A stretch of DNA of 64,000 nt from Escherichia phage EPIMRB01. The position numbers and the translations under genes were made by a program. Under the pieces are notes generated by a model. The model was not told the DNA's origin, ran no database searches, and saw nothing but the letters and a program-made list of their open reading frames with translations. Positions within the stretch are counted from its first letter, which is position 1; every line of letters starts with the position of its first letter. Below, piece after piece: positions 10,022 to 64,000 of the stretch. The stretch is from the sequence record PQ657784, one strand, 5' to 3'.

Positions 10022-11440
10022 TTATGGATAGGTATAGATGATACCAGTTTCTAAAGCAGTTTTATGAATGATGTATCCATTACGTGATTCTTGAACATCA
10101 ACTTCTGGATAGTCTTTCATCATCTTCTGAAGGGTGTAACGATGCAGGTAGTATTTACTATCTGGATCTTCAGTTTTCCAATCTTTACCTTCTTCAGTCA
10201 TTTTTTGGATTTCATCCATAACCCACCAACCGCACCAGATATAAGCTGAAGTACGATGTGGAAGAGGATGAACATAAGGCAATTCACCTTCTGGTTCTGG
10301 AGCAACTTTATCAGTTACCTGAACTTGACCTTCTGCTGTGATAGTTTTGCTATCATAATCAGTAGCAGTAACAGTTGCAGTAACTTCAATAGTTTGACTT
10401 CCAATAGATGATGTATCAACAGTGTATACATTAGTTGACCCTTCTACTGGAGAAGAATCTTTCTTCCATGAATATTCGATTTGTGCTTCTTCTGGAGCAT
10501 CCGTAACATTAGCAGTAAATGTAGCCGAAGCATCTTGCTGAACGTTAATAGAAGGAGGAGTCAATGTAACCTGTGGATTCATTGTCTTCTTATTAACTGT
10601 CAATGATACTTCATTAGAAGTAACTTCCTTTTCATTGTAATTTTCAGCCGTTACTTGGGCTACACACTTAACTGTTTTAGCTCCAACTGTGGTAGGAGTA
10701 TAGTTAAATGTAGTAGTAGTTTCTCCATCGACCAGAGAACCGTCAACATACCACTGATACGTAGCAGACGCTCCATCGGGTTGAGAAACTAAGGCAGCAG
10801 TAAATTGAACTGGGGTTCCAATAACTCCTGCTGGAGGATTAGCAGGAGTTACGGCTAACGTAGTTGTCTGTGTTTTCTTATTAACAGTCAGTGACACTTC
10901 ATTAGAAGTAACTTCCTTTGCATCATAATCTGTCGCGGTTACTTGAGCTACACACTTAATTGTTTTAACTCCGCTTGCGTCAGGAGTGTAATTGAATGTA
11001 GTGCCAGTTGCTTCGCCCACAGGAGAACCGTCAACGTACCATTGATATGTAGCGTTTGCACCTGATGGCTGTGAAGCTAAGGCAGCGGTAAATTCAATTG
11101 GAGTTCCAATCACTCCAGCATCAGGGCTACCAGGAGTTACAGCTAAAGTAGTTGTTTGTGTCTTATTTTGAACTGTGATAGTTGTACTAATTTCTGCTGT
11201 TTCAGGTTCAGATTCTGCAACTTGATTGGTTGCAACTACTTTAATAGTCTTTTGACCGGCAGGTCCTTTTAGTACATAACTAAAAGTTGCTGACGTTTCT
11301 TCCTGTGGAGCGTCGTCTACAGTCCAAGCATATGTAATAGGTCCATCTCCAGTTTGACCACTGGGTGTAGCAGTAAACTGCTGAGTCTGATCTATAACTC
11401 CAGTAGGTGTTTTAGGAGTTATATCAACTGTAAAAGTCAT
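10022..11440 (-). CDS. hoc: Highly immunogenic outer capsid protein Hoc, 472 aa with four Ig-like domains plus C-terminal capsid-binding domain
   Basis: N- and C-terminal sequence recognisably Hoc; internal 96-aa Ig-like unit present as two diverged tandem copies; T4 Hoc as I recall is 376 aa. Confidence 0.9.
   Translation of the reverse strand: MTFTVDITPKTPTGVIDQTQQFTATPSGQTGDGPITYAWTVDDAPQEETSATFSYVLKGPAGQKTIKVVATNQVAESEPETAEISTTITVQNKTQTTTLAVTPGSPDAGVIGTPIEFTAALASQPSGANATYQWYVDGSPVGEATGTTFNYTPDASGVKTIKCVAQVTATDYDAKEVTSNEVSLTVNKKTQTTTLAVTPANPPAGVIGTPVQFTAALVSQPDGASATYQWYVDGSLVDGETTTTFNYTPTTVGAKTVKCVAQVTAENYNEKEVTSNEVSLTVNKKTMNPQVTLTPPSINVQQDASATFTANVTDAPEEAQIEYSWKKDSSPVEGSTNVYTVDTSSIGSQTIEVTATVTATDYDSKTITAEGQVQVTDKVAPEPEGELPYVHPLPHRTSAYIWCGWWVMDEIQKMTEEGKDWKTEDPDSKYYLHRYTLQKMMKDYPEVDVQESRNGYIIHKTALETGIIYTYP
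10589..11164 (-). repeat. Two diverged tandem 288-bp repeat units inside hoc (encode duplicated Ig-like domain)
   Basis: Protein units aa 93-188 and 189-284 are about 80 percent identical; DNA landmarks recur at exactly 288-bp offset (e.g. cttattaac at 10589 and 10877). Confidence 0.85.
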
Positions 11441-23153: not shown

Positions 23154-23161
23154 TTTGTGTT

Positions 23162-23214
23162 CCTCATGTTATGTTAGTAAGATTATTATAACACAACACG
23201 AGGGACTTGTAAAC
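23162..23214 (-). promoter_or_regulatory. Early promoter cassette (GTTTAC -35, TATAAT -10, leader with GAGG SD) for ORF 22863-23153
   Basis: Minus-strand GTTTACAAGTCCCTCGTGTTGTGTTATAATAATCTTACTAACATAACATGAGG; 49 of 53 nt identical to cassette at 39138-39190. Confidence 0.65.
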
Positions 23215-25271
23215 TACATCTTGAACTTTTTAGACATTCCGTTGATGTTAACCAAAGAAGCCAAGATTTGAGAAACTTCGTTTTCCTCTTCTTTTGATTC
23301 TTCTACAAGGAATTGATTAAACCCAGCCATTGGACGAACTTCACCAGTTTCCATTAGATGATCGCCATCATATACCGATTCTTCTAATTGTTCAGAAGGA
23401 GGAACGATTGTGCCTTCGATTAGATACTTGTTATAAGCAGTTTCTTTCATCATGTACGTGCTTACTTTATTAATCTTCAACAAAATTCCACGCGGTAGAA
23501 TAACTTCAGCTTCTGATGGAAATCCTGATAAATGACCTGGAACGATAACTTTGATTCGCTCAGCCCCTTTAATTACCATACCTACACTAGTTTCAGCATC
23601 TTCATTAGCATATGCAGAATGACTACCCATATGCATTAAATCTTCGGCATCAACGGAACCTTCTCCTTCACCAGAAAATACTGCACCGGAATCATCTAGA
23701 GCCATATAGTTTTTACCATGCTCACCGAAGATATTTGGTTTAAGCGATGTTGATACGAAGTTCTTGAAATAGAACATTTTATTTTCAATATTATGGCGTA
23801 AAGTTTTAAAAGTAACTTCTTGACCACGATAAAGCGTAGTTCCCGGAGGAAGAACTGATCCTTTGGCGAATGCAGAATCCATTGTCTCGATGTGTTTAAT
23901 AGCTCGTTCCATGTATTCTTCACGGGTAGAATCTGGTTTACCTAAAAGGAACGAGTTCATTTCAACATATGAATCTGCACAATAATCTTCAATTACATCA
24001 GACTCAGCCTGAGTCAGTCCTTTTGGAGTTACTTCGGTGCTTGCGTATTCATATGCCTGAGCAGCAGATTCATTAATCAATTTATAAATGCCATTCATGA
24101 CAAATTGAATAATAGCTACCTTTTCGTCTGGCGTGGCTTTAGAACCTTTAACTAAATCATTGATAATTTTCTTAATAACATCAAAGCTATTAGAAATATT
24201 AATGTCAGCGAGATCGCTCAAAATTTTATCTGTTTTATAATCAAAGAATTCTTTATTCTTTAAATATTCTTGAGAACCTTGATGTGTTATATCGCTCTGC
24301 AGTCTGATAGACGGATCACGTAAACGCGCATGGGCCAATGCAATATGATTTCGGAAGCTTTCTAGTTCATAATCGTTAGATTTAAAACGAGAAGCACTTC
24401 TCATACCACCGATAGCTCCTTTGCCGAAGTTTGAACCAATCTGAATAACGCCAGAGTTCATTGGTCCTTCTGCTTTATATACCGGAACTTTAGATTCAAA
24501 CTCTTGATATTTCTTAGCAGCGAAGCTATCGCCCTGGAGTGAAGCATCGACAGTAGAATATTGAGCTTGTGCTGCTAATCGACGACTAATTTTAGTTTTC
24601 TGAATAACAGCTTGATCCGTGCGCTTATCATTTTCTAAAGCAATAGAAGCAGCAACAGCAACAGCTTTAGGAACAGCATTACCTGTTTTGACATCTACAT
24701 AAACATCACCAACCTTTGATTCAACTTTTGTGAATAACTCAGTTGAAATAGGAGGTACACCTGGAATGTCTTCTAAATTGGCATTTTTACGGTAAACCAT
24801 AATATATGCATACTTTTTATCGTAATCCCAGATTTCCTTTAAAAGAACATATCGACCTGCTCCTTTAGTACGTACTAAACGGTCAGCAATAACTTGCATT
24901 TGACGAGCAGCGCCATTTGTTTTACTTTTTAGTACGCGGAATAAGCATGCATCAATTTTATACTGTTTCATTGTTTGAAGAGCAGTATCAAAAACAGCAT
25001 TAATGACACCAATTGGATTTCCACCCAAGTTTTTAAGTTTAACTAATGATAGTTTCTCATTAACACCTATCATTACGATATGCATCATTTTATCGCCTGG
25101 CTTAACGTTTTTATTTGTATCACCGCCAGAGGTGTATGTACAAAATCTAAATCCAGGAAGCACGCTTTCTTCACCAGCTTGAATAGCAAAAATTTGAGGT
25201 ATTTTATGCTTAGGATTTAAGTTAACAACCGGCGCCGAAGCGCCGTCAAATAATTCTGTAATAAGTTCCAT
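23214..25271 (-). CDS. Alt-family ADP-ribosyltransferase paralog (685 aa)
   Basis: N-terminal about 230 aa near-identical to adjacent Alt; C-terminal R-S-E ART motifs YRGQ, FVSTS, EAEVILPRG; start MELITE. Confidence 0.8.
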   Translation of the reverse strand: MELITELFDGASAPVVNLNPKHKIPQIFAIQAGEESVLPGFRFCTYTSGGDTNKNVKPGDKMMHIVMIGVNEKLSLVKLKNLGGNPIGVINAVFDTALQTMKQYKIDACLFRVLKSKTNGAARQMQVIADRLVRTKGAGRYVLLKEIWDYDKKYAYIMVYRKNANLEDIPGVPPISTELFTKVESKVGDVYVDVKTGNAVPKAVAVAASIALENDKRTDQAVIQKTKISRRLAAQAQYSTVDASLQGDSFAAKKYQEFESKVPVYKAEGPMNSGVIQIGSNFGKGAIGGMRSASRFKSNDYELESFRNHIALAHARLRDPSIRLQSDITHQGSQEYLKNKEFFDYKTDKILSDLADINISNSFDVIKKIINDLVKGSKATPDEKVAIIQFVMNGIYKLINESAAQAYEYASTEVTPKGLTQAESDVIEDYCADSYVEMNSFLLGKPDSTREEYMERAIKHIETMDSAFAKGSVLPPGTTLYRGQEVTFKTLRHNIENKMFYFKNFVSTSLKPNIFGEHGKNYMALDDSGAVFSGEGEGSVDAEDLMHMGSHSAYANEDAETSVGMVIKGAERIKVIVPGHLSGFPSEAEVILPRGILLKINKVSTYMMKETAYNKYLIEGTIVPPSEQLEESVYDGDHLMETGEVRPMAGFNQFLVEESKEEENEVSQILASLVNINGMSKKFKM

Positions 25272-25274
25272 GAT

Positions 25275-27371
25275 TTATCCTTGAACGAACTTGTAAGGCA
25301 TGTTTGTAATATCTATGCAAGACGCAATAATTCCAAGAGATGATTCTACTTTCTGTTTAACATTTGATGAAACAAATGATGCAAAATCAACTCTGTCTTC
25401 TATTTCAATATCACCTGTCATTGCAACTACTTCACCAGTTTCCATTAGACGGTCACCGTCATAAATTACTGATTCGGTGAGTTCTTCCGTAGTCATAACT
25501 TCAGCTTGAATGAGTTTTGTATTATTAGATGTTGTTCCGTCATTATTAGAAGCATCAGTTATTTTATTAACTTTGACCATCAATCCGCGTGGTAGAATAA
25601 CTTCAGCTTCTGTTGCTATTCCGAGACTTCCTGGATATACAACATTAACTTTATGAGCTCCATCAATTGCCCATCCTATTTGAACTTTAACGTATTCAGG
25701 ATTTTCTTTATACGCTCTTATTTCATTTGGATTAATAGTTATTCCTTCTTCATTTTTATCAACTGTCAATTCATTACGAGCTTCTGGTTCTAAAAGACCA
25801 ATACCAGCATGTGTAATTCCAAAACGTCCAAAAATGATAGGAGTTAAAGAAGTAGATACAAAATTTCTGAAATAGAACACTTTATTTTTAACTAGTGCTT
25901 CGTATATAGGAGCAGTCATACTTTGAGCACGATAAACTGTAATGCCTTCTGGTATACGGTCACCATTTTCAAAAGCTGAATCTAAGTTATTTATAGCAGA
26001 TTCAATTTCTTTTTCACTCATTACATCATATCGTTCTGGATTGTAGCGTCCTAAAAGAAGATTATTGATGTCAGTATATCCTGAACCGCAATACTCTCTA
26101 ATGCCGCGCTTTTGTGATGGAGTATATTTAGAACCATCACGGGCAATAGTAATATCAATCATTGGACCTGCACCAATTCCAGAAAAGCTATAAATCATTC
26201 GTTTGAGGAATTTAGTTTTTGCTGCGTTCCAGGAATTTTTAGTTATTTCTTCCCAGACTTCATCTGGCTGTCCTTTACGGGTTTTATTATGTTTATCAAG
26301 CCAATTATCTTTATATTCTTCAAAGAGTTGATTAACAGCTGCTGCGTATTTTTCTAAACATTTTATTGAAGTAGTTGGTTCATTTTTAATCGCATTAAGA
26401 ATTACATCTTTAATTTTTTCAGAAACTTCACCAACCTCACTCATTGGAAAGAATTTATAGTCATAATGAAGTTCATCTGCAGTTCCTTCAGCAATAATTT
26501 TTGCTGCCTTAGTTTTAGAAGCTAATGAATTAATTCCAAGCTTCATTTCTTCTGCTTCGGGAATTAAAGGAGCTGTAGCAGGTTTATTGAAATTAGCTGC
26601 GGTAGATTCATACTTTTGGAATAATTCACTTTCAAATCTAGAAGATTCCAATGACTGACTTTGTGCAATTGCTCTACGGGAAATTTTAACTTTAACGATT
26701 ACAGCTTGGTCAGAACGTTTATCGTTTTCTTGTGCAATAGATGCGGCAATTGCCTCATTTTTAGTTACTTGAGCTCCGGTATCTTTATTGATATAAACAT
26801 CACCGACCTTCGATTCAACTTTAGTAAAGAGCTCGGTACTAATTTCAGGAACTCCTGGAATGTCTTCTAATGATACATTTTTGCGATGTATAAGAATATA
26901 TGCATACTTTTTATCGTAATCCCAGAGTTCCTTAAGAAGGACGTATCTGCCACCTGAACGACTACGGATAAGTCTATCAGCAATAAGTTGAATTTGACGA
27001 GCTTGACCAGCAGTTTTAGACTTAAGAATACGGAGCATACAGGCATCAATTTTATACTGACGCATCGTCTGCATCGCAACAGTAAAAACTGAATTGATGT
27101 AATTAATTGGGCTTGGACCGAGACCTTTTAATTTAGCAATTGAACCTTTGGCAGTTAATGTAAAAGGAACAATATGCATCATTTTATCGCCCATCTTTAA
27201 ATCGCGATTAGTATCACCTCCAGATGTATAGGTACATAAACGAAAGCCTGGTTGTTCAATTGCGTCATCAACATGAACTGAAAAAATTTGCGGTATTTTC
27301 TTCTTTGGATTTAAGTTTGTAATCGGAAGAGTAGTATCTTCGTCAAATAATTCTGTAATGAGTTCCATCAT
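25275..27371 (-). CDS. alt: Alt ADP-ribosyltransferase (698 aa), packaged internal head protein
   Basis: Sequence matches what I recall of T4 Alt; ART motifs YRAQ, FVSTS, EAEVILPRG; stop is 3 nt from start of downstream paralog. Confidence 0.85.
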   Translation of the reverse strand: MMELITELFDEDTTLPITNLNPKKKIPQIFSVHVDDAIEQPGFRLCTYTSGGDTNRDLKMGDKMMHIVPFTLTAKGSIAKLKGLGPSPINYINSVFTVAMQTMRQYKIDACMLRILKSKTAGQARQIQLIADRLIRSRSGGRYVLLKELWDYDKKYAYILIHRKNVSLEDIPGVPEISTELFTKVESKVGDVYINKDTGAQVTKNEAIAASIAQENDKRSDQAVIVKVKISRRAIAQSQSLESSRFESELFQKYESTAANFNKPATAPLIPEAEEMKLGINSLASKTKAAKIIAEGTADELHYDYKFFPMSEVGEVSEKIKDVILNAIKNEPTTSIKCLEKYAAAVNQLFEEYKDNWLDKHNKTRKGQPDEVWEEITKNSWNAAKTKFLKRMIYSFSGIGAGPMIDITIARDGSKYTPSQKRGIREYCGSGYTDINNLLLGRYNPERYDVMSEKEIESAINNLDSAFENGDRIPEGITVYRAQSMTAPIYEALVKNKVFYFRNFVSTSLTPIIFGRFGITHAGIGLLEPEARNELTVDKNEEGITINPNEIRAYKENPEYVKVQIGWAIDGAHKVNVVYPGSLGIATEAEVILPRGLMVKVNKITDASNNDGTTSNNTKLIQAEVMTTEELTESVIYDGDRLMETGEVVAMTGDIEIEDRVDFASFVSSNVKQKVESSLGIIASCIDITNMPYKFVQG

Positions 27372-27404
27372 ATCCTCTCTAGTGTTTATTCTATTTATAA
27401 AATT

Positions 27405-39132: not shown

Positions 39133-39137
39133 AAAGT

Positions 39138-39190
39138 CCTCATGTTATGTCAGTAAGTCTACTATAACACAACACGAGGGACTTGTAAAC
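39138..39190 (-). promoter_or_regulatory. Early promoter cassette for alc (near-identical copy of 23162-23214)
   Basis: Minus-strand GTTTAC ... TATAGT ... CATGAGG directly upstream of alc ATG. Confidence 0.65.
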
Positions 39191-51727: not shown

Positions 51728-54700
51728 ATGGCCGAGATTAAAAGAAAGTTCAGAGCAGAAGATGGTCTGGACGCAGGTGGCGATAAAATAATCAACGTAG
51801 CTTTAGCTGATCGTGCCGTAGGAACTGACGGTGTTAACGTTGATTACCTAATTCAAGAAAACACAGTTCAACAATATGATCCAACTCGTGGATATTTAAA
51901 AGATTTTGTAATCATTTATGATAACCGCTTTTGGGCTGCTATAAATGATATTCCAAAACCAGCAGGAGCTTTTAATAGTGTACGCTGGAGAGCATTACGT
52001 ACTGATGCTAATTGGACAACTGTTTCATCAGGACCTTATCAATTAAAGTCAGGCGAATCAATTTCAGTTGATACTGCAGCTGGTAATGACATTACATTTA
52101 CTTTGCCATCTTCTCCAATTGATGGAGATACTATCGTTCTTCAAGATATTGGTGGAAAACCTGGTGTTAACCAAGTTTTAATTGTAGCTCCAGTGCAAAG
52201 TATTGTAAACTTCAGAGGCGAACAAGTACGTTCAGTACTAATGACTCATCCAAAATCGCAGATAGTTTTAATTTTTAGTAATCGTCTGTGGCAAATGTAT
52301 GTTGCTGATTATAGCAGAGAAGCTGTAGTCGTAACACCGGCAAGTCTTTATCAGGCGCAATCTAACGATTTTATCGTGCGCAGATTTACTTCAGCCGCGG
52401 CGATTAATATTAAACTTCCGAGATTTGCTAATCATGGCGATATTATTAATTTCGTCGATTTAGACAAATTAAATCCACTTTATCATACAATTGTTACTAC
52501 ATACGATGAAACAACTTCAGTGCAAGAAGTTGGAACTCATTCCATTGAAGGCCGTACATCGATTGATGGTTTCTTGATGTATGATGATAATGAAAAATTG
52601 TGGAGATTGTTTGACGGGGATAGTAAAGCACGTTTACGTATTATAACAACTAATTCTAGTATTCGTCCAAATGAAGAAGTTATGGTATTTGGAGCGAATA
52701 ACGGAACAACCCAAACAATTGAACTTCAGCTTCCGACCGATATTTCCATTGGCGATACTGTTAAAATTTCCATGAATTACATGAGAAAAGGCCAAACAGT
52801 TAAAATCAAAGCTGCCGGTGAAGATAAAATTGCTTCTTCAGTTCAATTGCTGCAATTCCCAAAACGTTCAGAATATCCGCCTGAAGCTGAATGGGTGACT
52901 GTTCAAGAATTAGTTTTTAATGGTGAAACTAATTATGTTCCAGTTTTACAACTTGCTTATATAGAAGATTCTGACGGAAAATACTGGGTTGTACAGCAAA
53001 ACGTGCCAACAGTTGAAAGAGTTGATTCTTTAAATGATTCTACTAGAGCAAGATTAGGCGTAATTGCTTTAGCTACACAAGCTCAAGCTAACGTCGATTT
53101 AGAAAATTCTCCACAAAAAGAATTAGCAATTACTCCAGAAACATTAGCTAACCGTACTGCTACAGAAACTCGTAGAGGTATCGCAAGAATAGCAACTACC
53201 GCCCAAGTGAATCAGGATACTACATTCTCTTTTGCTGATGATATTATCATCACTCCTAAAAAGTTGAATGAAAGAACTGCTACAGAAACTCGTAGAGGTG
53301 TTGCTGAAATTGCTACGCAACAAGAAACTAATACAGGTACTGATGATACTACAATCATCACTCCTAAAAAGCTTCAAGCTCGACAAGGTTCTGAGTCATT
53401 ATCTGGTATTGTAACCTTTGTATCTACTGCAGGAGCTACTCCAGCTTCTAGTCGTGAATTAAATGGTACAAACGTTTATAATAAAAACACTAATAATTTA
53501 GTTGTTTCGCCTAAAGCTTTGGATCAGTATAAAGCTACTCCAACGCAACAAGGTGCAGTAATTCTAGCAGTCGAAAGTGAAGTAATTGCTGGACAAAGCC
53601 AAGAAGGATGGGCAAATGCGGTTGTAACGCCAGAAACGTTACATAAAAAGACATCAACTGATGGAAGAATTGGTTTAATTGAAATTGCTACGCAAAGTGA
53701 AGTTAATACAGGAACTGATTATACACGTGCAGTCACTCCTAAAACTTTAAATGACCGTAGAGCAACTGAAAGTTTAAGTGGTATAGCTGAAATTGCTACA
53801 CAAGTTGAATTCGACGCAGGCGTCGACGATACTCGTATCTCTACACCATTAAAAATTAAAACTAGATTTAATAGTACTGATCGTACTTCTGTTGTTGCTC
53901 TATCTGGATTAGTTGAATCAGGAACTCTCTGGGACCATTATACCCTTAATATTCTTGAAGCAAATGAGACACAGCGTGGTACACTTCGTGTAGCTACACA
54001 GGTCGAAGCTGCTGCAGGAACATTAGATAATGTTTTAATAACTCCTAAAAAGCTTTTAGGTACTAAATCTACTGAAGCGCAAGAAGGTGTTATTAAAGTT
54101 GCAACTCAGTCTGAAACTGTGACTGGAACGTCGGCAAATACTGCTGTATCTCCAAAAAATTTAAAATGGATTGTGCAGAGTGAACCTACTTGGGCAGCTA
54201 CTACTGCGATAAGGGGCTTTGTTAAAACTTCATCTGGTTCAATTACATTCGTTGGTAATGATACAGTAGGTTCTACCCAAGATTTAGAACTGTATGAGAA
54301 AAATAGTTATGCAGTATCACCATATGAATTAAATCGTGTATTAGCAAATTATCTGCCGTTAAAAGCAAAAGCTGTAGATAGTAATTTATTGGATGGTCTA
54401 GATTCATCTCAGTTCATTCGTAGGGATATTGCACAGACGGTTAATGGTTCACTAACCTTAACCCAACAAACGAATCTGAGTGCCCCTCTTGTATCATCTA
54501 GTACTGCTACGTTCGGTGGTTCAGTTACAGCAAATAGTGTACTAACTATTTCTAATACTGGAACAGAAACTCATCTGATTTTTGAGAAAGGACCTCAAAC
54601 TGGAACTAACCAAGCACAGACGGTGACTATTAGAGTGTGGGGTAATCAATTTAGTGGGGAATCAAACACAACACGTTCTACCGTATTTGAAGTTAGTGAT

Positions 54701-55597
54701 GAAACATCTTATCACTTTTATTCTCAACGCGATAAAGATGGTAATATAGCATTTAGCATTAATGGTACTGTAATGCCAATAAATGTGAATGCTTTAGGAA
54801 CATTGAATGCAAATGGTGTAGCAACATTTGGTAATTCAGTCACTGCAAGTGGTGAAATTATTTCTCGAAGCGCAAATGCTTTCCGTGCTATTAACGGAAA
54901 TTATGGTTTTATTGTTCGCAATGACGGGTCAGTAACGAATTTTATGCTTACTGCATCGGGCGATCAGACTGGTGGATTTAATGGATTACGTCCATTAACT
55001 ATTAATAATGCATCTGGTCAAGTAACGATTGGTGAAAGCTTAATCATTGCCAAAGGTGCTACTATAAATTCAGGCGGTTTGACTGTTAACTCGAGAATTC
55101 GTTCTCAGGGTACTAAAACATCTGATTTATATACCCGCGCACCAACATCTGATACTGTAGGATTCTGGTCAATCGATATTAACGATTCAGCCACTTATAA
55201 CCAGTTCCCGGGTTATTTTAAAATGGTTGAAAAAACTAATGAAGTGACTGGACTTCCATACTTAGAACGTGGCGAAGAAGTTAAATCTCCTGGTACACTG
55301 ACTCAGTTTGGTAACACACTTGATTCGCTTTACCAAGATTGGATTACTTATCCAATAACACCAGAAGCGCGTACCACTCGTTGGACGCGTACATGGCAGA
55401 AAACCAAAAACTCTTGGTCAAGCTTTGTTCAGGTATTTGATGGAGGTAACCCTCCTCAGCCATCTGATATCGGTGCTTTACCATCTGATAATGCTATAAT
55501 GGGGAATCTTACTATTCGTGATTTCTTACGAATTGGTAATGTTCGCATTATTCCTGACCCAGTGAATAAAACGGTTAAATTTGAATGGGTTGAATAA
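51728..55597 (+). CDS. 34: Long tail fibre proximal subunit gp34
   Basis: 1289 aa, T4 gp34 length; internal repeated TPKxL / ATETRRG motifs; late promoter upstream. Confidence 0.9.
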   Translation: MAEIKRKFRAEDGLDAGGDKIINVALADRAVGTDGVNVDYLIQENTVQQYDPTRGYLKDFVIIYDNRFWAAINDIPKPAGAFNSVRWRALRTDANWTTVSSGPYQLKSGESISVDTAAGNDITFTLPSSPIDGDTIVLQDIGGKPGVNQVLIVAPVQSIVNFRGEQVRSVLMTHPKSQIVLIFSNRLWQMYVADYSREAVVVTPASLYQAQSNDFIVRRFTSAAAINIKLPRFANHGDIINFVDLDKLNPLYHTIVTTYDETTSVQEVGTHSIEGRTSIDGFLMYDDNEKLWRLFDGDSKARLRIITTNSSIRPNEEVMVFGANNGTTQTIELQLPTDISIGDTVKISMNYMRKGQTVKIKAAGEDKIASSVQLLQFPKRSEYPPEAEWVTVQELVFNGETNYVPVLQLAYIEDSDGKYWVVQQNVPTVERVDSLNDSTRARLGVIALATQAQANVDLENSPQKELAITPETLANRTATETRRGIARIATTAQVNQDTTFSFADDIIITPKKLNERTATETRRGVAEIATQQETNTGTDDTTIITPKKLQARQGSESLSGIVTFVSTAGATPASSRELNGTNVYNKNTNNLVVSPKALDQYKATPTQQGAVILAVESEVIAGQSQEGWANAVVTPETLHKKTSTDGRIGLIEIATQSEVNTGTDYTRAVTPKTLNDRRATESLSGIAEIATQVEFDAGVDDTRISTPLKIKTRFNSTDRTSVVALSGLVESGTLWDHYTLNILEANETQRGTLRVATQVEAAAGTLDNVLITPKKLLGTKSTEAQEGVIKVATQSETVTGTSANTAVSPKNLKWIVQSEPTWAATTAIRGFVKTSSGSITFVGNDTVGSTQDLELYEKNSYAVSPYELNRVLANYLPLKAKAVDSNLLDGLDSSQFIRRDIAQTVNGSLTLTQQTNLSAPLVSSSTATFGGSVTANSVLTISNTGTETHLIFEKGPQTGTNQAQTVTIRVWGNQFSGESNTTRSTVFEVSDETSYHFYSQRDKDGNIAFSINGTVMPINVNALGTLNANGVATFGNSVTASGEIISRSANAFRAINGNYGFIVRNDGSVTNFMLTASGDQTGGFNGLRPLTINNASGQVTIGESLIIAKGATINSGGLTVNSRIRSQGTKTSDLYTRAPTSDTVGFWSIDINDSATYNQFPGYFKMVEKTNEVTGLPYLERGEEVKSPGTLTQFGNTLDSLYQDWITYPITPEARTTRWTRTWQKTKNSWSSFVQVFDGGNPPQPSDIGALPSDNAIMGNLTIRDFLRIGNVRIIPDPVNKTVKFEWVE

Positions 55598-55605
55598 GAG
55601 GTATT

Positions 55606-56721
55606 ATGGAAAAATTTATGGCAGAGTTTGGACAAGGATACGTCCAAACGCCATTTTTATCGGAAAGTAATTCAGTAAGATACAAAATAAGTATAGCGGG
55701 TTCTTGCCCGCTTTCTACCGCAGGACCATATGTTAAATTTCAGGATAATCCTGTAGGAAGTCAAACATTTAGCGCAGGTCTTCATTTAAGAGTTTTTGAT
55801 CCTTCTACAGGATCATTAGTTGATAGTAAGTCATATGCTTTTTCTACTTCAAATGATACTACATCAGCTGCTTTTGTTAGTTTCATGAATTCTTTGACGA
55901 ATAATAGAATTGTTGCTATATTAACTAGTGGAAAGGTTAATTTTCCTCCTGAAGTAGTATCTTGGTTAAGAACCGCCGGAACGTCTGCTTTTCCATCTGA
56001 CTCTATATTGTCAAGATTCGACGTATCATATGCTGCTTTTTATACTTCTTCTAAAAGAGCTATTGCATTAGAGCATGTTAAATTAAGTAATAGAAAAAGC
56101 ACAGATGATTATCAAACTATTTTAGATGTTGTATTTGACAGTTTAGAAGACGTCGGAGCTACCGGGTTTCCAAGAAGAACATATGAAAGCGTTGAGCAAT
56201 TTATGTCAGCGGTTGGTGGAACCAATAACGAAATTGCGCGTCTACCAACTTCAGCTGCTATAAGTAAACTTTCTGACTACAATTTAATTCCTGGCGATGT
56301 TCTTTATCTTAAAGCACAACTATATGCTGATGACGATTTACTTTCTCTTGGAACTACTAATATATCCATTAGATTTTATAATGAATCGGATGGATATATT
56401 TCTTCAACATACGCTGAGTTTACCGGTCAAGCTGGGTCATGGGAATTAAAGGAAGACTATGTAGTTGTTCCTGAAAATGCGGTAGGATTTACGATATATG
56501 CACAAAGAACTGCCCAAGCAGGTCAAGGCGGCATGAGAAATTTAAGCTTTTCTGAAGTATCAAGAAATGGCGGCATTTCAAAACCTGCTGAATTTGGCGT
56601 CAACGGTATTCGCGTTAATTATGTCTGTGAATCCGCTTCACCTCCAGATATAATGGTACTTCCTACACAAGCATCGTCTAAAACTGGTAAAGTGTTTGGA
56701 CAAGAATTTAGAGAAGTATAA
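55606..56721 (+). CDS. 35: Long tail fibre hinge protein gp35
   Basis: 371 aa, position between 34 and 36. Confidence 0.85.
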   Translation: MEKFMAEFGQGYVQTPFLSESNSVRYKISIAGSCPLSTAGPYVKFQDNPVGSQTFSAGLHLRVFDPSTGSLVDSKSYAFSTSNDTTSAAFVSFMNSLTNNRIVAILTSGKVNFPPEVVSWLRTAGTSAFPSDSILSRFDVSYAAFYTSSKRAIALEHVKLSNRKSTDDYQTILDVVFDSLEDVGATGFPRRTYESVEQFMSAVGGTNNEIARLPTSAAISKLSDYNLIPGDVLYLKAQLYADDDLLSLGTTNISIRFYNESDGYISSTYAEFTGQAGSWELKEDYVVVPENAVGFTIYAQRTAQAGQGGMRNLSFSEVSRNGGISKPAEFGVNGIRVNYVCESASPPDIMVLPTQASSKTGKVFGQEFREV

Positions 56722-56783: not shown

Positions 56784-57567
56784 ATGGCTGATTTAAAAGT
56801 AGGTTCAACAACCGGAGGCTCTGTCATTTGGCATCAAGGAAATTTTCCATTGAATCCAGCCGGTGACGATGTACTCTATAAATCATTTAAAATATATTCA
56901 GAATATAATAAACCGCAAGCTGCTGATAACGATTTCGTTTCTAAAGCTAATGGTGGTACTTATTTAAATAAAGTAATTTTTAATAAAGGAATGACTGTTC
57001 CTGGCGCAGGGTCAGGTGATAATGGTATTTTTGCTGGTCCTGGTGATAGTGCCACGTATGATACTACAAATATGGATATTGTTTCGTGGTATGGTATTGG
57101 TTTTAAATCATCACAAGGAACAGCAGGTAGAACTGTAGTAATTAACACGCGAAATGGAGATATTAGCTCAAAGGGCGTAATTGAAGCATCACAAATCCGT
57201 GTAACTTCGTTATCACCAGTAAATAATTATGACCTTACGCGGAAAGATTATGTTGATGGAGCAATAAATATTGTTACCGCAAACGCAAACTCTAGCAAAG
57301 GGCGTAATTGAAGCATCACAAATCCGTGTAACTTCGTTATCACCAGTAAATAATTATGACCTTACGCGGAAAGATTATGTTGATGGAGCAATAAATATTG
57401 TTACCGCAAACGCAAACTCTAGGGTATTACGCTCTGGAGACACTATGACAGGAAATTTAACTGCGCCAAACCTTTTTTCACAGAATCCTGCATCTCAACC
57501 TTCACATGTTCCACGATTTGATCAAATTGTTATTAAGGATTCTGTTCAAGATTTCGGCTATTATTAA
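56784..57567 (+). pseudogene. 36: Long tail fibre distal small subunit gene 36, split into two ORFs (56784-57311 and 57271-57567) by a frameshifting 127-bp tandem duplication
   Basis: Deleting one 127-bp copy restores a single ORF of about 218 aa (T4 gp36 is about 221 aa); the 41-aa segment KGVIEASQ...TANANS is encoded twice. Confidence 0.75.
57169..57422 (+). repeat. Perfect direct tandem duplication, 2 x 127 bp (57169-57295 and 57296-57422)
   Basis: Copies read identically by eye; flanking bases differ on both sides, so unit boundaries are exact; 127 is not a multiple of 3. Confidence 0.9.
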
Positions 57568-57575
57568 GAGGACTT

Positions 57576-60500
57576 ATGGCTACTTTAAAACAAATACAAT
57601 TTAAAAGAAGCAAAACTGCAGGAGCACGTCCTGCCGCTTCAGTATTAGCCGAAGGTGAATTGGCTATAAACTTAAAAGACCGTGTACTTTTTACTAAAGA
57701 TGACCAAGGAAATATTATTGATCTGGGTTTTGCTAAAGGCGGTAGTATTGACGGGAATGTTATTCATACAGGCAATTATAACCAAACTGGCGATTATACT
57801 TTAAATGGCACCTTCACTCAGACTGGTAATTTTAATTTAACTGGTATTGCTCGAGTAACTCGCGATATTATTGCCGCTGGGCAGATTATGACTGAAGGCG
57901 GAGAACTTATTACAAAAAGTTCAGGTACAGTGCATGTTCGTTTTTTCGATAACAATAGTCGCGAACGCGGAATCATTTATGCCCCGGCTAATGATGGTTT
58001 AACTACACAAGTACTTAATATCAGGGTTCAAGACTACGCCGCTGGTAGCGAAAGCACTTATGCATTTTCAGGCAGTGGACTATTTACTTCACCTGAAGTA
58101 TCAGCATGGAAATCTATTTCGTCTCCACAAATTCTAACCAACAAAGTCATTACTAATAATAAATCTACTGGTGATTATGACATCTATTCGATGGCAGACA
58201 ATGTTCCATTGTCTGAAAGCACTACTGCTATTAATCATCTTCGTGTCATGCGTAATGCCGTTGGTTCTGGTATTTTCCATGAAGTTAAAGATAATGATGG
58301 AATAACTTGGTATGCAGGTGATGGACTTGACACCTATCTTTGGTCATTTACTTGGAGCGGCGGAATTAAATCGAGTCACTCAATTTCTATTGGTTTAACA
58401 CCTGGTAATAAAGATTATTCAATATTAGGACCATCTAGTATTGCTTTAGGAGATAATGATACTGGATTTAAATGGCATCAAGATGGATATTATTTTAGCG
58501 TTAATAATGGAACAAAAACGTTTTTATTTAGTCCTAGCGAAACAACTAGCCTAAGAAAATTTGTAGCTGGATATTCTACTAACGGAACCGATTTAACTAC
58601 TCCTCCAACTGAAAACTATGCTCTCGCTACTGTCGTGACATATCACGATAATAACGCGTTTGGAGATGGTCAGACTCTTTTAGGATATTATCAAGGCGGT
58701 AATTATCATCACTATTTCCGCGGTAAAGGTACTACAAACATTAATACTCATGGCGGTTTGTTAGTTACTCCAGGTAATATTGATGTTATTGGCGGTTCTG
58801 TTAATATAGATGGTAGAAATAATTCTTCTACACTAATGTTTAGAGGCAACACAACAGGATACAGCTCGGTTGATAATATGGATATTAAAGTTTGGGGTAA
58901 TACGTTTGTTGATCCAAGCGGAGGTATCCGTAAAAACATTATGGAAATTTCTGATGCAACTAGCTGGATGAGCTATATTCAAAGACTTACTACTGGCGAA
59001 GTAGAAATGAACGTTAATGGTTCATTTGAATCATCTGGTGTTACTGCTGGAGATAGAGGAGTTCACACAACAGGTGAAATTTCATCTGGGGCTGTGAATG
59101 CGCTTCGTATTTGGAACGCAGATTATGGAGCTATTTTTAGACGTTCAGAAGGCAGTCTTCATATTATTCCAACTGCTTACGGTGAAGGTAAACATGGTGA
59201 TATCGGTCCACTTCGCCCGTTTAGTATGGCTTTAGATACCGGTAAAGTTACTATTCCAGATTTACAATCAAGTTACAATACGTTTGCTGCTAACGGTTAT
59301 ATTAAATTTGTTGGTCATGGAGCGGGTGCCGGCGGTTATGACATTCAATATGCTCAAGCGGCTCCTATTTTCCAGGAAATTGATGATGATGCTGTAAGCA
59401 AATATTATCCTATTGTTAAACAGAAGTTTTTAAATGGTAAAGCTGTTTGGTCTTTAGGTACTGAAATTAGTTCAGGTACATTCGTTATTCATCATCTGAA
59501 AGAAGATGGTTCACAAGGCCATACGTCTCGTTTTAATCAAGACGGTACTGTTAACTTCCCAGATAACGTTTCTGTCGGCGGCGGTGAAGCTACTATTGCT
59601 CGCAATGGTAATATCTGGTCTGATATCTGGAAAACGTTTACTTCAGCAGGCGACGTAACTAATATTCGCGATGCAATAGCTACTCGTGTTGCTAAAGAAG
59701 GTGATACGATGACCGGTAGGTTGACTTTATCTGCTGGAAATGATGCCCTTGTTTTAACTGCAGGCACGGGCGCTTCATCGCACATCCGTAGTGATGTAGG
59801 TGGTACAAATAATTGGTTTATAGGCAAAGGCGGCGGCGACAATGGTCTAAGTTTTTACAGTTACATTACACAAGGCGGTGTGAACATAACAAATAACGGC
59901 GAAATAGCGCTTTCTCCTCAAGGACAAGGAGCGTTTAATTTTAATAGAGACCGCCTTCATATAAACGGTACACAATGGACCGCACACCAGGCTGGCGATT
60001 GGGGAAATCAATGGCGCCAGGAAGCTCCTGTATTTGTGGATTTTGGTAATGTCGGTAATGATAGTTATTATCCTATTATTAAAGGAAAATCTGGTATTAC
60101 TAATGAAGGGTATATATCTGGTGTAGATTTTGGTATGCGACGCATTCCTAATAACTGGGCACAAGGTATTATTCGTGTAGGTAATCAGGAAAACGGTTCC
60201 GACCCACAAGCTATCTTCGAATTCCACCATAATGGAAACATGTACGTTCCTGACATGGTTAAAGCTGGAGTAAGAATATCAGCTGGTGGAGGTGACCCTG
60301 CATGGACAGACGCATGTGTTGTTATTGGTGATAATGACACCGGATTAGTTCATGGTGGTGACGGCCGAATCAATATGGTTGCCAATGGTATACATATTGC
60401 TTCATGGTCGTCCGCTTACCATCTCCATGAAGGTCTTTGGGATACTACTGGTGCTTTGTGGACTGAGCAAGGAAGAGCTATTATTTCTTTTGGTCATTTA

Positions 60501-60887
60501 ATCCAACAGAGTGATGCCTATTCTACGTTTGTCCGTGATGTTTATGTCCGCTCTGATATTCGTGTTAAAAAAGACCTCGTTAAATTTGAAAATGCTTCTG
60601 AAAAGCTTTCTAAAATTAACGGTTACACTTATATGCAGAAACGTGGAACTGACGAAGAAGGTAATCAGAAATGGGAACCTAACGCCGGTTTAATTGCTCA
60701 AGAAGTTCAAGCTATTTTACCAGAATTAGTTGAAGGCGACCCGGATGGTGAAGCTTTACTTCGTTTGAACTATAACGGTGTAATTGGTTTAAATACAGCT
60801 GCAATCAATGAGCATACTGCAGAAATTGCGGAACTTAAATCAGAAATTGAAGAACTTAAAGCATTAGTTAAATCATTGTTAAAATAA
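57576..60887 (+). CDS. 37: Long tail fibre distal subunit gp37 with C-terminal intramolecular chaperone / autoproteolysis domain
   Basis: 1103 aa; C-terminal about 110 aa (from RSDIRVKK, around nt 60552) resemble endosialidase-type self-cleaving chaperone domains, consistent with T2-type processed gp37. Confidence 0.9.
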
Positions 60888-60906: not shown

Positions 60907-60918
60907 TTGGAGGTTTAT

Positions 60919-61695
60919 ATGGCAGTAACAGGACCGTGGGTAGGATCGTCTGCAGTAGTTAATACAGGACAAAATTGGATGGGTGGTGCCGCGCAGAGAT
61001 TGAGAATGGGAATTCCGTTTTGGATGAGTAATATGATAGGTCGATCTGTTGAAATAATTCACACGCTTGGAGCAGACCATAACTTCAATGGTCAATGGTT
61101 CCGAGATAGATGTTTTGAGGCAGGTAGTGCACCTATAGTGTTTAATATCACTGGAGATTTAGTATCATATTCTAAAGATGTTCCTTTATTCTTCATGTAT
61201 GGAGATACACCCAATGAATATGTTCAGTTGAATATACACGGCGTAACGATGTATGGTCGTGGCGGTAATGGCGGTAGCAATAGTCCTGGCTCAGCTGGAG
61301 GTCATTGTATTCAAAACGATATTGGTGGGAGACTAAGAATTAATAATGGTGGAGCTATTGCAGGCGGCGGTGGCGGCGGTGGCGGCGGATATTATTCTCC
61401 TTTTTCACAAATGAGATTGACCTTTGGCGGCGGCGGTGGGCGTCCGTTTGGTGCACCTGGCGGATCTATTGATATGCAATCAGGAGCGACTGGCGGTACT
61501 ATTTCTGCACCTGGCTCAGGATCCGTGAATGGTATCTATAATGGTGGAAACGGTGGTGAAGTAGGTTCCGCGGGAGGTAGATGCAATATTCGCGGTCAAG
61601 GATCTGAATATAATGGCGGCGATGCTGGTTATGCCGTCATAGGGTCCGCTCCAACGTGGATAAATGTTGGAGCAATATATGGTCCAAGAGTATAA
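60919..61695 (+). CDS. 38: Tail fibre adhesin gp38, T2 type, with glycine-rich motifs
   Basis: 259 aa from ATG 60919 (track starts at TTG 60907); GGAGG SD; multiple Gly-rich tracts separating variable segments. Confidence 0.8.
61363..61389 (+). repeat. GGC/GGT trinucleotide run encoding poly-Gly in gp38
   Basis: ggcggcggtggcggcggtggcggcgga seen directly; encodes GGGGGGGGG. Confidence 0.8.
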
Positions 61696-63871: not shown

Positions 63872-64000
63872 ATCTTTAGAATAATGACGAGCACCTGGAA
63901 TAATAAGAGTTCGTCCATCTTTTAATTTAAAACGGTTGGCCGCGCAGACAATTCGTCGTTGATACTTTTGGTTTTCATCCCAATATGCAGTCTGCCAACA

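Follow-up and report, generated by a model that had tools for sequence, protein, structure and literature searches.

A perfect 127-nt tandem repeat in tail-fibre gene 36 of the Escherichia phage EPIMRB01 record is very probably an assembler overlap carried inside by re-orientation of the contig

Gene 36 of phage T4 is essential for assembly of the distal half-fibre; fibreless particles are non-infectious. Tandem duplications are familiar in T4 genetics, the classical rII-region duplications being an example. Repeats are also written by the assembler SPAdes, whose contig of a circular or circularly permuted genome ends with k bases that repeat its first k bases; for 250-nt reads the largest default k is 127. 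Terminal repeats of 127 bp have been trimmed off the SPAdes contig of a phage (PMC8104045). The EPIMRB01 genome was assembled from 2 × 250-nt MiSeq reads with SPAdes v3.15.5 into a single contig (PMC13295566), and the analysis described here concerns a stretch of 64,000 nt from its record, PQ657784.1, referred to below as the window.

The genes surrounding the repeat constitute an ordinary T-even long-tail-fibre cluster, with genes 34, 35, 36, 37 and 38 followed by holin t and then asiA (Table 1). The start codon of gene 38 is ambiguous, the program-made open reading frame (ORF) beginning with TTG at 60907 (262 aa) and the annotated and Logan-called gene with ATG at 60919 (258 aa).

Table 1. 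Features of the tail-fibre region in the window, with the positions of the five corresponding CDSs listed for PQ657784.1 in Table S1 of PMC13295566.
Feature	Position in window	Strand	Position in PQ657784.1	Description
Gene 34, long tail fibre proximal subunit	51728..55597	+	147728..151597	1289 aa
Gene 35, proximal hinge connector	55606..56721	+	151606..152721	371 aa
Gene 36, truncated frame	56784..57311	+	152784..153311	175 aa; EPIMRB01_00250, XLL18580.1
Copy 1 of the 127-nt unit	57169..57295	+		gp36 codons ~129-171; equals OY979771.1 117183-117309
Copy 2 of the 127-nt unit	57296..57422	+		100% identical to copy 1
Gene 36, 3′ remnant frame	57271..57567	+		98 aa; TTG start at 57271
EPIMRB01_00251, XLL18581.1	57445-57567	+	153445..153567	40 aa; ATG-started part of the 3′ remnant, the only part annotated
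Gene 37, distal subunit	57576..60887	+	153576..156887	1103 aa; C-terminal Peptidase_S74 intramolecular chaperone domain
Gene 38, T2-type adhesin	60919..61695	+		258 aa from ATG; GP38 and Gp38_N domains

Two 127-nt units lie head to tail within gene 36 and are identical at every position according to both a repeat search and string comparison. Tandem Repeats Finder, applied to 57169-57422, reports a period of 127 with 2.0 copies, 100% matches and 0 indels, so that three methods agree with the original prediction of identical tandem copies with exact boundaries. By string comparison the period-127 identity covers exactly these 254 nt with 0 mismatches and is not extended by any base on either side; the junction is therefore without microhomology (0 nt). 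The letters at the copy junction are AAACTCTAG to the left and CAAAGGGCG to the right (junction string AAACTCTAGCAAAGGGCG); the unit itself runs CAAAGGGCGTAATTG...AAACGCAAACTCTAG, with the same ends as CAAAGGGCGTAATTGAAGC...GCAAACGCAAACTCTAG, and GGTATTACGCTCTGG is the sequence entered after the unit. A perfect repeat of 127 nt cannot have arisen by chance. It is also the only direct repeat of at least 30 nt in the 64-kb window with 100% identity, as all others are 66-94% identical: the repeats of the hoc Ig-domain (78%), of the alt paralogues (73-94%) and of gene 34 (66-84%), and a 54-nt intergenic repeat (93%). Scans of the 64-kb window for Rfam families and tRNAs gave no match.

Several of these diverged repeats merit description in their own right. 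The hoc gene on the minus strand contains a 288-nt tandem repeat at 10583-11158 whose two copies are 78% identical and which we take to encode Ig-like domains of Hoc; at 96 codons, in frame and diverged, this is a genuine duplication, unlike the perfect and out-of-frame 127-mer. The ADP-ribosyltransferase genes alt_1 and alt_2 (as named in phage AUBRB02) adjoin at ~23300-27400 and share blocks of 73-94% identity at a spacing of ~2.09 kb, a pair that looks like an old natural gene duplication. The 54-nt intergenic direct repeat occurs at 23161-23214 and 39137-39190, 16 kb apart and 93% identical, and inspection by eye suggests that each copy may contain a dyad, TCCTCATGTT...AACACGAGGGA. In OY979771.1, one site separates the gene at 82877-83167 from alt_1 and the other separates the gene at 98640-99146 from RNA ligase 1. 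This element may be a repeated regulatory cassette or a stem-loop.

The effect of the 127-nt repeat on gene 36 follows from its length, since 127 is 42 × 3 + 1 and the reading frame shifts at the join. The ORF that begins at 56784 enters the second copy out of frame and ends at a TGA stop at 57309-57311, five codons past the junction when the junction codon is included, with the C-terminal sequence ...TANANSSKGRN. A second ORF at 57271-57567 repeats KGVIEASQ...ANANS and continues into the normal gp36 C-terminus. Deletion of one copy yields a single ORF of 657 nt encoding 218 aa. The frameshift with its stop five codons on (..ANANSSKGRN), the TTG-started ORF that re-encodes the repeat and the normal C-terminus, and the return to a single gene of ~218 aa on removal of one copy had each been put forward in the original prediction; the ORF check (175 aa), the translation and the in silico deletion reproduced all three.

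The restored protein matches the Pfam family PF03903, Phage_T4_gp36, with 99.9 bits against a gathering cut-off of 26 bits (E = 1.5e-28), the match covering positions 1-129 of the 131 in the profile. The 175-aa piece matches positions 1-117 of 131 with 86.1 bits and the 98-aa piece positions 76-130 with 31.5 bits. A single gp36 frame of ~218-221 aa is thus found only after removal of one copy (218 aa), the deposited sequence having a frame of 175 aa plus a remnant, and the underlying gene 36 is an ordinary member of Phage_T4_gp36. A search of solved structures by sequence (PDB) for a role of the C-terminal 47 residues of gp36 returned no match.

The repeat is a property of the deposited record. 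Five CDSs of PQ657784.1 (PMC13295566, Table S1), including those of 175 aa and 40 aa, have the coordinates of window ORFs plus 96000, and this constant offset identifies the window as positions 96001-160000 of PQ657784.1 and places the duplication at 153169-153422 of the record. The same match to published CDSs, split pair included, rules out a duplication that is unique to the window, was inserted into it or was produced in cutting it.

The closest relative of this sequence is Escherichia phage AUBRB02 (OY979771.1), the only record at 100% identity in a megablast search of a phage collection. Compared base by base, the window and OY979771.1 60015-123887 agree at 63,873 of 63,873 positions (0 mismatches) once the extra copy is set aside. 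In AUBRB02 the 127-mer occurs once and the 657-nt gp36 CDS at OY979771.1 116798-117454 (CAK6624452.1) is intact, and the coding DNA of the restored 218-aa gp36 is identical to that of CAK6624452.1. AUBRB02 was sequenced in the same laboratory, that of the Beirut group, using the same sequencing and SPAdes pipeline as for EPIMRB01. The first 127 nt of OY979771.1 (1-127) are identical to its last 127 nt (166745-166871), which indicates that the pipeline of this laboratory leaves the overlap untrimmed; of the 166,871 bp given as the length of the record, 127 bp are surplus, leaving a unique circle of 166,744 bp. The possibility that the window wraps around the ends of OY979771.1 was also considered and is ruled out, as that overlap lies at 1/166745 and not in gene 36 (117183), and the window never reaches the ends.

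Coordinates in PQ657784.1 equal those in OY979771.1 plus 35,986. By coordinate arithmetic, position 1 of PQ657784.1 falls at OY979771.1 130,759, a difference of 1 nt from the lower boundary of the rIIA CDS (130758..132935), provided that PQ657784.1 and OY979771.1 are also collinear beyond the window; that a circle of 166,744 nt should be opened no more than 1 nt from the boundary of a gene supports this assumption. The end of the rIIA gene is the conventional start of T4 records, and PQ657784.1, which begins within 1 nt of it, was therefore rotated after assembly. A search for the rIIB/rIIA boundary found it at 712 places in 494 records; this count, from results that do not list record starts directly, is only a hint that T4-like records are often opened at that point. 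PQ657784.1 apparently starts 1 nt within rIIA as annotated, counted from its low end, reflecting either an off-by-one re-opening that clips the rIIA stop codon or a 1-nt difference in length outside the window.

It is very probable that the 127-nt duplication was created by assembly and re-orientation and is absent from the phage. With k = 127, SPAdes would have written the EPIMRB01 contig with its last 127 bases repeating its first 127, and the start and end of that contig would by chance have fallen inside gene 36. When the contig was re-opened at the end of rIIA, its head would have been moved behind its tail with the overlap still untrimmed, an operation that would set both terminal copies of the 127-mer side by side. 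The in silico join would then shift the frame of gene 36 and lead the annotation pipeline to call CDSs of 175 aa and 40 aa, while the phage itself would carry one copy and make a normal gp36 of 218 aa. We infer that the former contig ends meet between 57295 and 57296, so that copy 2 would be superfluous, left over from the overlap (k = 127) between the two ends of the contig as SPAdes wrote it; copy 1, judged from the letters and their counterpart in AUBRB02, would be the genuine single-copy sequence. Four observations bear this out: the unit equals the final SPAdes k of 127, the copies are perfect, adjacent and together exactly 2k long, the record has been rotated, and its relatives are single-copy. 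An overlap moved inside by re-opening gives adjacent perfect 127-nt copies with no requirement for microhomology, so the zero-nucleotide junction fits this origin, being insufficient by itself to exclude a real event. The original prediction had listed an assembly artefact among its options, and it is this option that the match to k, the rotation and the single-copy sibling favor.

The proposed origin is reflected in the distribution of the junction. Comparison with gene 36 of related phages, suggested along with the original prediction, gave single-copy genes in AUBRB02 and in the best 40 of 689 matching phage records, in which a 921-nt query spans 793-794 nt by megablast, as expected of one copy. 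The duplication junction was absent from IMG/VR, JGI metagenomes and GTDB genomes. A junction-centred 80-mer was never contiguous in INPHARED, where only its two separate halves occur, 127 nt apart and in permuted order, and the same 80-mer had no match in 5,426 complete E. coli genomes. The exact 175-aa product was found on no indexed public assembly using an exact-protein index.

An independent assembly provides a further view of the locus. Exact-protein look-up of gp37 and gp35 identified one public contig of 16,665 nt, from the Logan assembly of ENA run ERR12363570, which was made with a different assembler from SPAdes. This contig is unbroken across gene 36, where a 218-aa gp36 is called, contains the 127-mer once and does not include the junction; it differs from the de-duplicated window at 0 positions over 12.4-13.1 kb. 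A tandem duplication that occurs at appreciable frequency would make a small-k de Bruijn graph fork at either end of the unit and so interrupt the contig; the continuity of this one thus speaks against the junction in the ERR12363570 reads. Based on sequence identity and the ENA accession, this run is most probably that of AUBRB02 and not necessarily the EPIMRB01 library. The 2026 paper from the Beirut group describing EPIMAM01 and EPIMRB01 reports intergenomic similarity of <95% between EPIMRB01 and its reference phages (PMC13295566), and AUBRB02 appears in it only within the reference list. EPIMRB01 and AUBRB02 appear to be one phage, or its re-isolate, deposited twice with different names and accessions.

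Among the alternatives, a genuine and very recent 127-bp duplication in the EPIMRB01 stock, arising by illegitimate recombination or replication slippage, present in the consensus or a large sub-population and knocking out gp36, is very unlikely. The repeat is present in the deposited sequence, tandem duplications are, as noted above, well known in T4 genetics, and EPIMRB01 has a smaller burst and weaker growth suppression than EPIMAM01 (PMC13295566), although two different phages are being compared there. Against such an event, the length is exactly the assembler k, the otherwise identical AUBRB02 genome has one copy, and the junction is in no public collection searched; the 0-nt junction microhomology points the same way, suggestively only, as microhomology is not obligatory. 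A frameshift in an essential fibre gene is moreover difficult to square with the consensus of a plaque-forming lysate. EPIMRB01 is reported to adsorb efficiently, form plaques and have a burst of ~75 PFU per cell (PMC13295566), properties that are hard to reconcile with a consensus-level frameshift in gene 36. The original prediction of a broken gene 36 and a phage defective in distal half-fibre assembly is not supported, in view of these plaques and this burst, the match to k, the rotation and the single copy in AUBRB02 and ERR12363570. Its accompanying argument, from the instability of perfect duplications in T-even phages proficient in recombination, is reasonable in itself but is not needed, because the duplication was most probably never in phage DNA.

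A related reading would have the EPIMRB01 stock carry the duplication and still make working fibres, either from a two-piece gp36 in which residues 1-171 are joined by a separately initiated C-terminal fragment, or from minority revertants that supply gp36 in mixed infections, with the match to k being coincidental; its chance is equally small. Taken together, a genuine and a tolerated duplication account for only a little more of the probability than the first of these does alone. Slighter still is the prospect of an in silico error at some other step unrelated to the SPAdes overlap, such as manual editing or contig merging, given that a length of exactly 127 nt would then be a coincidence and that the SPAdes route is documented in the other record of the laboratory, OY979771.1.

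Least credible is a duplication that is real and tolerated, with gp36 made as two polypeptides (175 aa and a re-initiated C-terminal piece) or, through a ribosomal frameshift in the second copy, as a full-length protein in which 42 residues are repeated internally. In its favor, the sequence shows a GGAG motif 8 nt before the TTG at 57271, and the two frames together encode all gp36 residues. Against it, the five codons before the stop contain no canonical slippery heptamer in frame, as read from the sequence, the arguments from k = 127 and AUBRB02 apply equally, and gene 36 is split in none of the best 40 of 689 phage records, nor does any INPHARED record contain the junction, so that a conserved programmed arrangement is ruled out.

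Attributing the repeat to an untrimmed overlap, the gene 36 duplication offers no biological novelty and belongs to a known class of assembler k-mer overlap artefacts; its importance is for curation, and its sole unusual aspect is that rotation carried the overlap from the ends of the record into an essential gene. In PQ657784.1 as deposited, an essential tail-fibre gene is falsely frameshifted, and both CDSs annotated there, XLL18580.1 (175 aa) and XLL18581.1 (40 aa), are spurious. The split of gene 36 has been read as "localized divergence" of the tail-fibre region and as a possible cause of phenotypic differences (PMC13295566). Part of that inference rests on the artefact, and both the record and the published interpretation need correction. 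OY979771.1 is 127 nt overlong for the same cause, an untrimmed SPAdes overlap. More generally, phage records can be screened for a perfect internal tandem repeat with a unit of 127, 99, 77 or 55 nt, which suggests an untrimmed overlap in a rotated contig.

Compared with T4 gp36, the restored gene 36 of EPIMRB01 has the expected position between genes 35 and 37, on which the order of ORFs and the annotation of relatives concur, the synteny 34-35-36-37-38-t and the PF03903 match, whereas the deposited frame is split into pieces of 175 aa and 40 or 98 aa; on the evidence, this split is a difference of the record and not of the phage. The repeat resembles the tandem duplications of T-even phages in being a head-to-tail direct repeat inside a T4-type genome, however the length of such duplications need not equal k, their presence would show in the reads, and they could not be fixed in an essential gene of a viable stock; the first and last of these points argue against this origin in EPIMRB01. 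The closest likeness is to the SPAdes "127 bp artificial overlap", shared in the length of exactly 127 nt, the 100% identity of the copies and the matching assembler and read length, and seen also at the ends of the AUBRB02 record. In contrast to that terminal overlap, the copies in EPIMRB01 are internal, the assembled contig having been opened anew at rIIA, and there they mimic a gene-disrupting duplication and are annotated as two CDSs.
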